From the NCBI GenBank assembly GCA_026025075.1, contig JAPEUI010000019.1, positions 62,001 through 126,000 on the forward strand: a DNA stretch of 64,000 bases, given 5' to 3'. This document shows, in pieces, positions 13,601 to 15,650 of this stretch. The notes beneath the pieces were generated by a model that was given only the letters and a program-made list of their open reading frames with translations, was not told the DNA's origin and ran no database searches. Source of the stretch: Vezdaea acicularis (lineage: Eukaryota). Positions within the stretch are counted from its first letter, which is position 1; each line of letters begins with the position of its first letter. The position numbers and the translations under genes were made by a program.

Positions 13601-14105
13601 TATGAATAGTGGGTGGTTTGACAGATCTGAAAGGTCTGGGCTACGATTGCTAAGCTGTGTTGTTCACTCCACATCTAATGGAAGATGAGGTTCCTGCTAT
13701 CGTTTTAGTCCGCTAGACTGAGCTAAATAGAAGTCTCTGAAGGGCACAGAAATTAGGTGGCCCTCAATGGCTTTTGTTTTATGAAAGGCAAATCCTCCGG
13801 TCCCAGCATTCAGTCGGCGGGGTCGGGCAGCTGCCGGTAGAGGGGCAATCGCGCTAAGGCGCTAGACCAGGGGCCTTCATTAGTCACAGCTGCGCTCGCC
13901 ACACACACAGCTTCATTGGAAGCGGACAATGTGTTCAAGATCATCGGGTATTTATGAGCCACCCGAACCTTTAAAGTTCTTTCCACTCAAAAAAACACAG
14001 AAAGCACACATCTTTCAGCGCAAGACATATCCCTACGTCAAACATACAGCAACTCGCCACCTTTCAGCACCAACTCACAGGTTGTACAAAGCGAAGACAA
14101 TCGAG

Positions 14106-14883
14106 ATGTCTTTATCACCACCAGCAGGAACCCCGTCAGTGAGCCAAGGCTCTGAAACAGACGAAAAAGACAAGAAGAAGGATGGTAAAAAGCCTATCGG
14201 CTCACTTTCCTTCCGCTTCTGTAGAAATTGGTAGGCTCGACGCCCTCATCCCCCTCTCTAGCGCCTCAATGCACTAACCAGTCCTTTCTTAGCTCAAACA
14301 TGCTATACCCTCAGGAAGATTCAACCAACAATACACTACGTTACGCATGTCGAACATGCCATTCCACTGAGCTGGCCGATTCACCTTGCGTGTACCGCGA
14401 CAACCTAGTCAACACGACTAGCGAGACGGCAGGTGTCACTCAGGATGTAGCGTCAGATCCAACAGTTAGTCTACCTGATTTCTGTACTCTCTGTGGTGAT
14501 TGTATTACCTGCTCGGAATGCGGGCTTTCAATATCCAAGGATGGAGTAGCTGTAACGGATGGGGAGGATTGGGAGAAGTATCAATATGGGTTTGAGGACG
14601 GAAGTGGAGAGAGTGAAGATTCGACAAGCAGCACTTGCTCTTCTTGATGCATAGTCAGTCTTTTGGATCTTCGCTAACATTGTGATGAATTTTCTAGCTG
14701 CCACGGTCGAACAGGAAATGCCCAAGGTGTGGGAAGCTCGATTCAGTTTTCTTCCAATCTCAGCAACGGTCTGCAGAAACGGGAATGGTATGCACCTTCG
14801 AATGGAGGTTCTACTTGCGCCTTTACTAACACTTCCAGAAACTTTTCTATGTGTGCTGCGAGTGTGGTAACATTTTCCAGTAA
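14106..14883 (+). CDS. RPB9: RNA polymerase II subunit Rpb9
   Basis: Spliced protein FRFCRNCSNMLYP...YACRTC...DPTLPRSNRKCPRCG...FFQSQQRSAETGMKLFYVCCECG. Introns at 14231-14292, 14465-14697 and 14788-14838. Confidence 0.95.
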
Positions 14884-15074
14884 AGAGGGAAAATGGTTTG
14901 GGCTCCTTGGTAGCGATAGCATTGATTCATGCATGGTTGGAGTAGGCAGCATTCAACGAAAGCATATTGTGGGAGGCGTTTTTTATCCTCGGCAGCTCAG
15001 GAGGGTCCTAGATGAGCACAACGGCTTTTGTACCGTAACATAGCAATCCAGTATTCTCTCCAAATGACAGGACA

Positions 15075-15650
15075 CTATAAATGCATCGGTGCCAGTGACA
15101 AGATCTTAGACCACTTCTTATCCCTCAACTCAGCCCCAACGATCCCTAAAAGGTCACGAAGTCAGCCGCGGGTCCGCTGTGTCTGAGAAGGGTCCTTGCT
15201 CACCGTTTAATCTAGTCCCGATCGGTTCTCCAGCCTTGTTGATCAATACGCACGCATTGTCATCGAATTTCACTACGCTTCCGTCTTTCCGTTGGAGTTT
15301 TTTTGCTGTCCGTACTACGACGGCATGTCGAATGTCTCCTCTTCGAACCTTATTGGCAGCCGAAGTAGACACGCTGCCTCCTGGCCCACTCTCAGGCCCA
15401 AAGGAACGCTGCTTCTGTACCACAACAACTATTCGATCACCTAGATGGCGCAGATATGAGCTTGCTGCTCCCATGTATCGAAGCCGATATCACAGACCTA
15501 TCCGCGCATGGCGCTTCATTTTGAGAACTTTTGCGCATTCTACCACGGCCGCTCCGGAGTTGTCGATGCAGTTAAGCATCGTCTAGAATAGATGATCAGT
15601 GTGTATAGGTCTGAGGTATGGATTGACGGACGTACCTTTAATTGTATCAT
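15075..15650 (-). CDS. MRPL38: Mitochondrial ribosomal protein uL14m
   Basis: [46 protein letters not shown]; three introns. Confidence 0.92.

Follow-up and report, generated by a model that had tools for sequence, protein, structure and literature searches.

An open reading frame in intron 2 of RPB9 is conserved across four classes of Pezizomycotina and may encode an alternative C-terminus of the RNA polymerase II subunit Rpb9

Intron 2 of the RPB9 gene in Pezizomycotina is probably a dual-use sequence: its removal leads to canonical Rpb9, while the unspliced form would give an alternative C-terminus that has been kept by selection. We assign this reading a probability of about 0.75. Core subunits of RNA polymerase II (Pol II) are generally regarded as coming in a single form for each gene. 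RPB9 would be a case of intron-retention coding, a known phenomenon, in such a subunit, and the small module it would encode matches no family. A literature search found no description of an RPB9 retention isoform; the supplementary tables of fungal splicing surveys could list the event. Nor did that search find another case in which a core Pol II subunit has retained-intron coding sequence shared by four fungal classes. On rpb9 introns, a 2026 fission-yeast paper goes no further than remarking that they might matter for expression (PMC13300194).

Layout of RPB9 in the window

The window is the whole stretch of DNA analyzed, 64,000 nt of Vezdaea acicularis contig JAPEUI010000019.1 (positions 62,001 to 126,000 of the forward strand), and all coordinates below are counted from its first letter. 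The gene and the features of intron 2 are as follows.

14106..14883, plus strand: RPB9, four exons, read from the sequence, with the ATG at 14106
14106..14230, plus strand: exon 1, from the initiator Met to FRFCRN plus TG (split Cys codon)
14231..14292, plus strand: intron 1, 62 nt (GTAGGC ... CTAAC ... TAG)
14293..14464, plus strand: exon 2, the remaining part of the N-terminal ribbon (Zn1) and the linker, ending ...ETAGVTQDVASDPT (from translation and Pfam PF02150)
14465..14697, plus strand: intron 2, 233 nt, phase 0, donor GTTAGT, acceptor TAG at 14695-14697
14465..14647, plus strand: in-frame read-through ORF, 60 codons plus TGA at 14645-14647 (from translation and homologous ORFs)
14483..14524, plus strand: Cys module CTLCGDCITCSECG, with conserved C7, C10, G11, C16, C19 and G20 of the intron peptide
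14525..14644, plus strand: acidic tail, 40 residues, 10 D/E and 2 K/R, predicted to be disordered
14698..14787, plus strand: exon 3, LPRSNRKCPRCGKLDSVFFQSQQRSAETGM, first part of the TFIIS-type C-terminal ribbon (PF01096)
14788..14838, plus strand: intron 3, 51 nt (GTATGC ... CTAAC ... CAG)
14839..14883, plus strand: exon 4, KLFYVCCECGNIFQ plus TAA, end of the canonical 143-aa protein (from sequence)

The N-terminal ribbon has its first CxxC in exon 1, which aligns with relatives over their N-termini, and exon 2 ends in ...SDPT. Because that first CxxC (FRFCRNC) is encoded in exon 1, the exon-2 part taken alone scores just under the PF02150 cut-off (24.9 against 25.2 bits); full-length read-through relatives reach 40-48 bits. 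The initial annotation had taken the downstream exons to encode the C-terminal, TFIIS-like zinc ribbon of Rpb9, and this assignment stands: exon 3 alone matches Pfam Zn_ribbon_TFIIS (PF01096) at 33.2 bits (cut-off 21). Exon 3 is also 77% identical to the canonical relative P0005, and exon 4 matches that protein's C-terminus at every residue. The PF01096 ribbon (Zn2) is thus present in the canonical splice form and absent from the read-through form. A branch-like CTAAC lies in intron 2 at 14674-14678.

RPB9 stands tail to tail with a gene for a mitochondrial-type ribosomal protein uL14 on the minus strand (15157-15582), where Pfam Ribosomal_L14 scores 86.4 bits on 15157-15489 and 15490-15582 is a likely upstream exon. 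The sole Rfam match at E<=10 over 13900-15100 is RAGATH-12 at 14824-14898, across intron 3 and exon 4; with 16 bits against a gathering score of 75 and an E-value of 3.1, it is taken as chance.

The reading frame of intron 2

The initial annotation had traced the exon-2 frame for 60 codons into intron 2, with a stop ending at 14647. Translation of 14294-14647 returns the same peptide, VSLPDFCTLCGDCITCSECGLSISKDG...STCSS, with the stop at 14645-14647; its intron-encoded part is FCTLCGDCITCSECG, followed by the acidic tail. The CxxC-x5-CxxC array and the acidic tail that had been described directly after DPT are both seen in this translation (10 D/E and 2 K/R among the 40 tail residues). The window's peptide carries five Cys spaced by three, and the four that are conserved elsewhere make up the CxxC-x5-CxxC pattern. 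The first 12 residues of the tail are similar to the ...G-x-x-L-E-V-x-D extension of relatives. Intron 2, which had been singled out as unusually long, is so when set against the other introns of this gene (233 nt versus 62 and 51 nt), being 3.8 to 4.6 times their length. Across relatives its median is 223 nt (159-627, n=57), compared with medians of 55 nt (n=52) and 58 nt (n=45) for introns 1 and 3.

In intron-retention and exitron isoforms, an annotated intron is translated when it is left unspliced. What we propose for RPB9 resembles exitron-type isoforms in that intron-annotated sequence would be translated; it differs from exitrons in that the 233 nt of intron 2 are not a multiple of three and include a TGA (14645-14647). 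The introns of relatives do likewise, a stop of their own and a length that is not a multiple of three being general among them. The read-through stop lies 50 nt upstream of the acceptor and 141 nt upstream of intron 3. Since it stands ahead of a further intron, an mRNA that keeps intron 2 may be a target of nonsense-mediated decay.

Many Lecanoromycete-like alternative C-termini end in ...[KR][ST][SC] or ...SS directly ahead of the stop (L001, L003, L018, L072, P0037, P0040, P0088, P0127 and the window at 14630-14644). These ends stand a few bases 5' of the branch site, and an origin in the protein or in the splice signal is possible.

Conservation at related loci

Metagenome contigs were scanned with exon-2 patterns, which yielded 155 relatives, and the best 80 were kept. 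At all 80 loci, the best of 155 in a tblastn ranking whose query included the intron peptide and which favors carriers, the intron sits at the same phase-0 site after DPT and is open in frame. The ORFs span 21-152 codons when five that are cut by a contig end are included, and the 75 complete ones span 23-152 codons with a median of 60. They begin with V[GS], followed after a few residues by a hydrophobic position and CxxC(G). Forty-nine loci carry four Cys, 24 carry three, six have CxxCG only and one (L048) is decayed; the three-Cys form reads VGLPLCLLCG.VVMCEGR, and the first two Cys of the module are invariant in the alignments of relatives. Conservation of the Cys motif, on which the initial annotation had made its proposal depend, is therefore found, with four Cys at 49 of these 80 best loci of 155 and in 111 of the 120 best database proteins. 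An intact exon 3 lies downstream of the open intron wherever the contig extends that far, in 57 of 69 distinct sequences (none was found in the fetched stretch of the other 12), and both products are therefore encoded.

These comparisons also bear on whether a long intron could be open in this way by chance. The window's ORF, considered singly, could be so explained, as at least 60 open codons occurred in 466 of 20,000 mononucleotide shuffles of intron 2 (2.3%) in which the donor hexamer and the last 30 nt were kept fixed; by itself it is only suggestive evidence against chance. Viewed together with the related loci, the frame is far more than chance would give, judging from the 80 of 80 loci (best of 155) that share it and from the selection signatures described below. 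The comparative data refute the chance explanation, to which we give next to no weight.

Several loci differ in intron content or in the state of the frame. Exons 1 and 2 are joined in 15 of the 80 loci, and the presence of several of the 15 on long contigs suggests lineages without intron 1. None of the 80 fetched loci has exons 2 and 3 joined or exons 3 and 4 joined. L041, a whole contig of 1409 nt, stands alone among 19 group-D loci in lacking intron 1, with introns 2 and 3 present; it could be either an intron loss or a partly processed transcript. In the Leotiomycete-like L048 (612-791), a 2-nt insertion lies in the Cys motif and the frame reads on to the acceptor TAG, while the donor is the consensus GTGAGT. 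By its sequence, this locus looks like a lineage with a decayed alternative frame and a strengthened donor.

Selection on the encoded peptide

Selection was assessed in 15 disjoint closest pairs drawn from the 69 distinct sequences of this carrier-biased locus set, with near-identical sequences and pairs more than 30% divergent dropped and the two donor codons skipped. In the exon-2 frame, the pairs carry 146 differences at 529 synonymous sites and 142 at 2027 non-synonymous sites, which corresponds to a pN/pS of 0.25 in the read-through frame (binomial p 2e-29), and the differences at codon positions 1, 2 and 3 number 67, 62 and 159. For comparison, pN/pS is 1.28 in the two shifted sense frames and 1.25 and 1.50 in two of the antisense frames. 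The third antisense frame, in which the wobble position is shared, has a value of 0.39; stops fall in 28 of its codon pairs and in none of those of the sense frame. By region, pN/pS is 0.33 in the stretch before the motif, 0.13 in the Cys motif and 0.31 in the tail, compared with 0.03 in exon 2. Both TGT and TGC encode the conserved Cys, in mixed proportions, and all four Gly codons occur at the conserved Gly.

Insertions and deletions follow the same frame. Internal gaps in alignments of the open stretch are multiples of three in 22 of 22 cases inside the ORF versus 8 of 30 after the stop, a comparison that is partly conditioned on openness. Whole-intron alignments are free of that conditioning and agree in three of five groups (A, B and E), where all gaps ahead of the stop are multiples of three and most of those beyond it are not. 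Groups C and D retain the motif, with tails that differ in length and frame. Frame preservation and a dN/dS below 1, both of which had been put forward as expectations for a coding intron, are thus seen, and at the level of sequence comparison they establish purifying selection on the intron-encoded amino-acid sequence.

This pattern weighs on an explanation in which intron 2 is an RNA element, either a switch in splicing or decay by which RPB9 dosage is adjusted or the host of a small RNA, with the open frame as a by-product. The weak donor, odd length and premature stop do resemble a regulated unproductive-splicing switch, and dosage control and a functional peptide would be compatible with each other. 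Nevertheless, changes are concentrated at third codon positions, the conserved Cys and Gly codons vary synonymously, only this stop-free frame has a pN/pS of 0.25, indels in the ORF are multiples of three, and the Rfam scan of 13900-15100 placed no family in intron 2. We consider an RNA element with an incidental frame to be unlikely.

The regional values are also relevant to a peptide that is translated but acts only in cis, as a nascent chain or a decay-triggering ‘poison’ extension, and yields no stable subunit. Such a peptide would suit the position of the stop upstream of a further intron and the short ORFs of some lineages (group D, with 23-45 codons). An arrest peptide would not be expected to have two CxxCG knuckles or a long acidic tail that is itself under selection (0.31); such features would better suit a folded module with a tail for interaction, and a purely cis-acting role seems to us very unlikely.

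Database proteins and taxonomic spread

A word-based protein search with exon 2 alone retrieved 33 relatives in addition to the window's own cluster. Both ribbons are present in 11, and the other 22 have the N-terminal ribbon only and read from DPT-V... onward; CxxCG followed by acidic sequence is found in 16 of these read-through models and the motif is missing in six. A profile of exon 2 plus the ORF matched 1486 proteins at E<=1e-3. The best 120 of the 1486 are all read-through models (111 with four Cys, eight with three and one with two), with named sources in Lecanoromycetes, Sordariomycetes and Leotiomycetes, in a setting where database gene models favor long open frames. Database proteins from short contigs, among those inspected, mostly read out of intron 1 and are therefore genomic calls.

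Read-through models are present in many Lecanoromycetes, Sordariomycetes (Colletotrichum, Claviceps, Ophiocordyceps, Diaporthe, Trichoderma and Cephalotrichum), Leotiomycetes (Lachnellula and Tricladium) and Dothideomycetes (Elasticomyces, Acrodontium and Macrophomina), with the taxonomic lineage looked up for five species. No Eurotiomycete names occur among the matches listed. When a profile of the intron peptide was run against 1.84 billion representatives, it returned 64 matches, 62 of which are RPB9 read-throughs or fragments of them as judged by reading the sequences. The tails average 28% D+E and 7% K+R, and D+E exceeds K+R in 127 of 134. Dothideomycete-like tails share the motif CG.P[TS]D.G..LE[VA].D and Hypocreales-like tails share [ED]DP[FY].EYDEE[LVM]M.

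Two matched proteins were noted in their own right. P0204 (532 aa) carries about eight tandem copies of a 46-residue unit, ...HGRAYCVLCGSEFGCVSLDRSASEEVFEWGSLEDPEE, and matches the intron-peptide profile in seven stretches (E 6.5e-5); it may be an amplified form related to the CxxCG-plus-acidic unit, or the resemblance may be due to chance. P0214 (186 aa), which is not an Rpb9, has two copies of SCxxCGK.IYCxxCG with the knuckle spacing of the module (E 5.8e-4) and no Pfam family.

An atypical splice donor

The donor of intron 2 is atypical, being GTTAGT in the window and GTKGGT in most relatives. Among 69 intron 2 donors, GTGGGT occurs 26 times, GTTGGT 24 times, GTTAGT ten times and GTAGGT four times, with five others. 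Compared over intron positions only with 108 donors of introns 1 and 3 from the same loci, intron 2 has T at +3 in 35 of 69 donors versus 5 of 108 and G at +4 in 54 of 69 versus 9 of 108; 67 of the 69 have scores under the median of those 108 (Mann-Whitney p 4e-11). Donor and peptide share these bases, and selection may act on either. Under either reading, the odd donor points to a function of the unspliced form, as far as sequence can indicate.

Alternatively, the ORF could be spliced in frame to exon 3 from a second donor close to its 3' end, which would insert the intron-encoded residues between linker and Zn2 instead of replacing Zn2. Among the 120 best proteins, four are modeled in this way and carry both the Cys module and Zn2: P0135, P0145 and P0155 from Colletotrichum (236-239 aa) and P0154 from Lachnellula suecica (170 aa). 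The Colletotrichum models agree in the last residues of the ORF, ...VSWPTFQLA|V[NS]Q, as far as the putative second donor. These four models may, however, be gene-finder artifacts. The window's ORF has phase-0 GT sites only at codons V28 and V30, and both are poor, the better being GTAGCT, 81 nt in, with a score of -9.6. None of 57 loci has an internal phase-0 GT that reaches the 10th percentile of real donors under a 9-mer donor matrix, which is biased by its exon positions. A stop codon and an intron length that is not a multiple of three are, moreover, general among the relatives. An in-frame insertion is, in our assessment, very improbable, and we return to the alternative C-terminus.

Nature of the intron-encoded module

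The CxxCG-x4-CxxCG module, of about 14-30 residues, is probably a minimal zinc knuckle or ribbon. That description derives from the Cys pattern, and the lineages with two or three Cys weaken it. Paired CxxCG knuckles are common to the intron module and to small zinc ribbons of the DZR, TRASH and rubredoxin-like kinds, yet the likeness is sub-threshold where it was scored, at 17.6 bits for DZR against P0034 (cut-off 27.3) and 13.2 bits for TRASH_HVO_1752_C against the window (cut-off 27). The module is unlike those ribbons in its 5-residue spacer, in reaching no family cut-off and in having no structural match at E<=0.001.

For the 60-aa intron peptide, Pfam returned no families at cut-off. The best ESM Atlas score was 0.82, under the level that counts, and a Foldseek search of the PDB with the 60-aa model gave 12 rows, all with E>1 and none at E<=0.001. 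AlphaFold was run on the full-length relative P0064 (132-row alignment) and on the window peptide (70 rows). Mean pLDDT over 10-residue blocks of the module was moderate, at 64-74 and 70-77, and pLDDT in the tail was about 50; the acidic tail is accordingly predicted to be disordered.

A proposed alternative Rpb9 C-terminus

We propose that the fate of intron 2 would determine which Rpb9 is made. When the intron is spliced out, the product would be the canonical 143-aa Rpb9, in which Zn1 and the linker are followed by the TFIIS-like Zn2 ribbon. If the atypical donor goes unused, either through retention or because the transcript ends inside the intron, translation would continue from ...DPT into the intron and give a protein of 159 aa with Zn1 and the linker intact. 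In this form, Zn2 would be swapped for the CxxCG-x4-CxxCG module and a disordered acidic tail. The alternative Rpb9 would be seated in Pol II through Zn1 and the linker, and would change what Zn2 normally does.

The two forms can be compared with known versions of the subunit. The gene, the N-terminal ribbon and the linker up to DPT are common to the read-through form and to canonical Rpb9/POLR2I (PF02150 plus PF01096), and the position of the next knuckle is similar, with the first CxxCG seven residues past DPT in the window and the canonical CPxCG at eight. Beyond this point, canonical Rpb9 has the CxxC-x24-CxxC ribbon of exons 3 and 4, whereas the read-through form has CxxCG-x4-CxxCG and the acidic tail. 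An engineered yeast Rpb9 of residues 1-52 contains Zn1 and the linker without Zn2, as in the read-through form, and it is reported to restore autophagy and ATG1 transcription and to be enough for this set of Rpb9 functions (PMC9638876). Forms that lack Zn2 can therefore be active. The same paper cites Cramer et al. 2000 for a contact of Zn1 with Rpb1 (PMC9638876). The yeast 1-52 form is a laboratory truncation; in the fungi considered here a natural, conserved extension would add a module and a tail.

Beyond the proposed C-terminus itself, one can picture leotiomyceta fungi making two kinds of Pol II from one RPB9, with a weak donor, an anchor formed by Zn1 and the linker, and a knuckle with an acidic tail that replaces the TFIIS-like ribbon at the jaw. 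Leotiomyceta comprise most of Pezizomycotina, and the jaw is where downstream DNA enters Pol II. This broader picture is tentative, and we hold it to be possible rather than probable. If it is true, a deliberately weak donor would cause a share of transcripts to keep intron 2, the tail could act as a nucleic-acid mimic or bring in a basic partner, and fidelity, the response to TFIIS or the choice of start site would be altered. Since splicing at weak sites depends on elongation, the ratio of isoforms could report the state of the polymerase.

For annotation, many deposited RPB9 models are read-through forms without Zn2 (all of the best 120 of 1486 profile matches and 22 of the 33 exon-2 matches); other deposited models are canonical, and the databases are silent on two products of one gene. 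If true, an alternative Rpb9 C-terminus kept by selection in four fungal classes would imply that the core enzyme has a regulated variant, and many crop pathogens, industrial species and lichen fungi belong to the group concerned.
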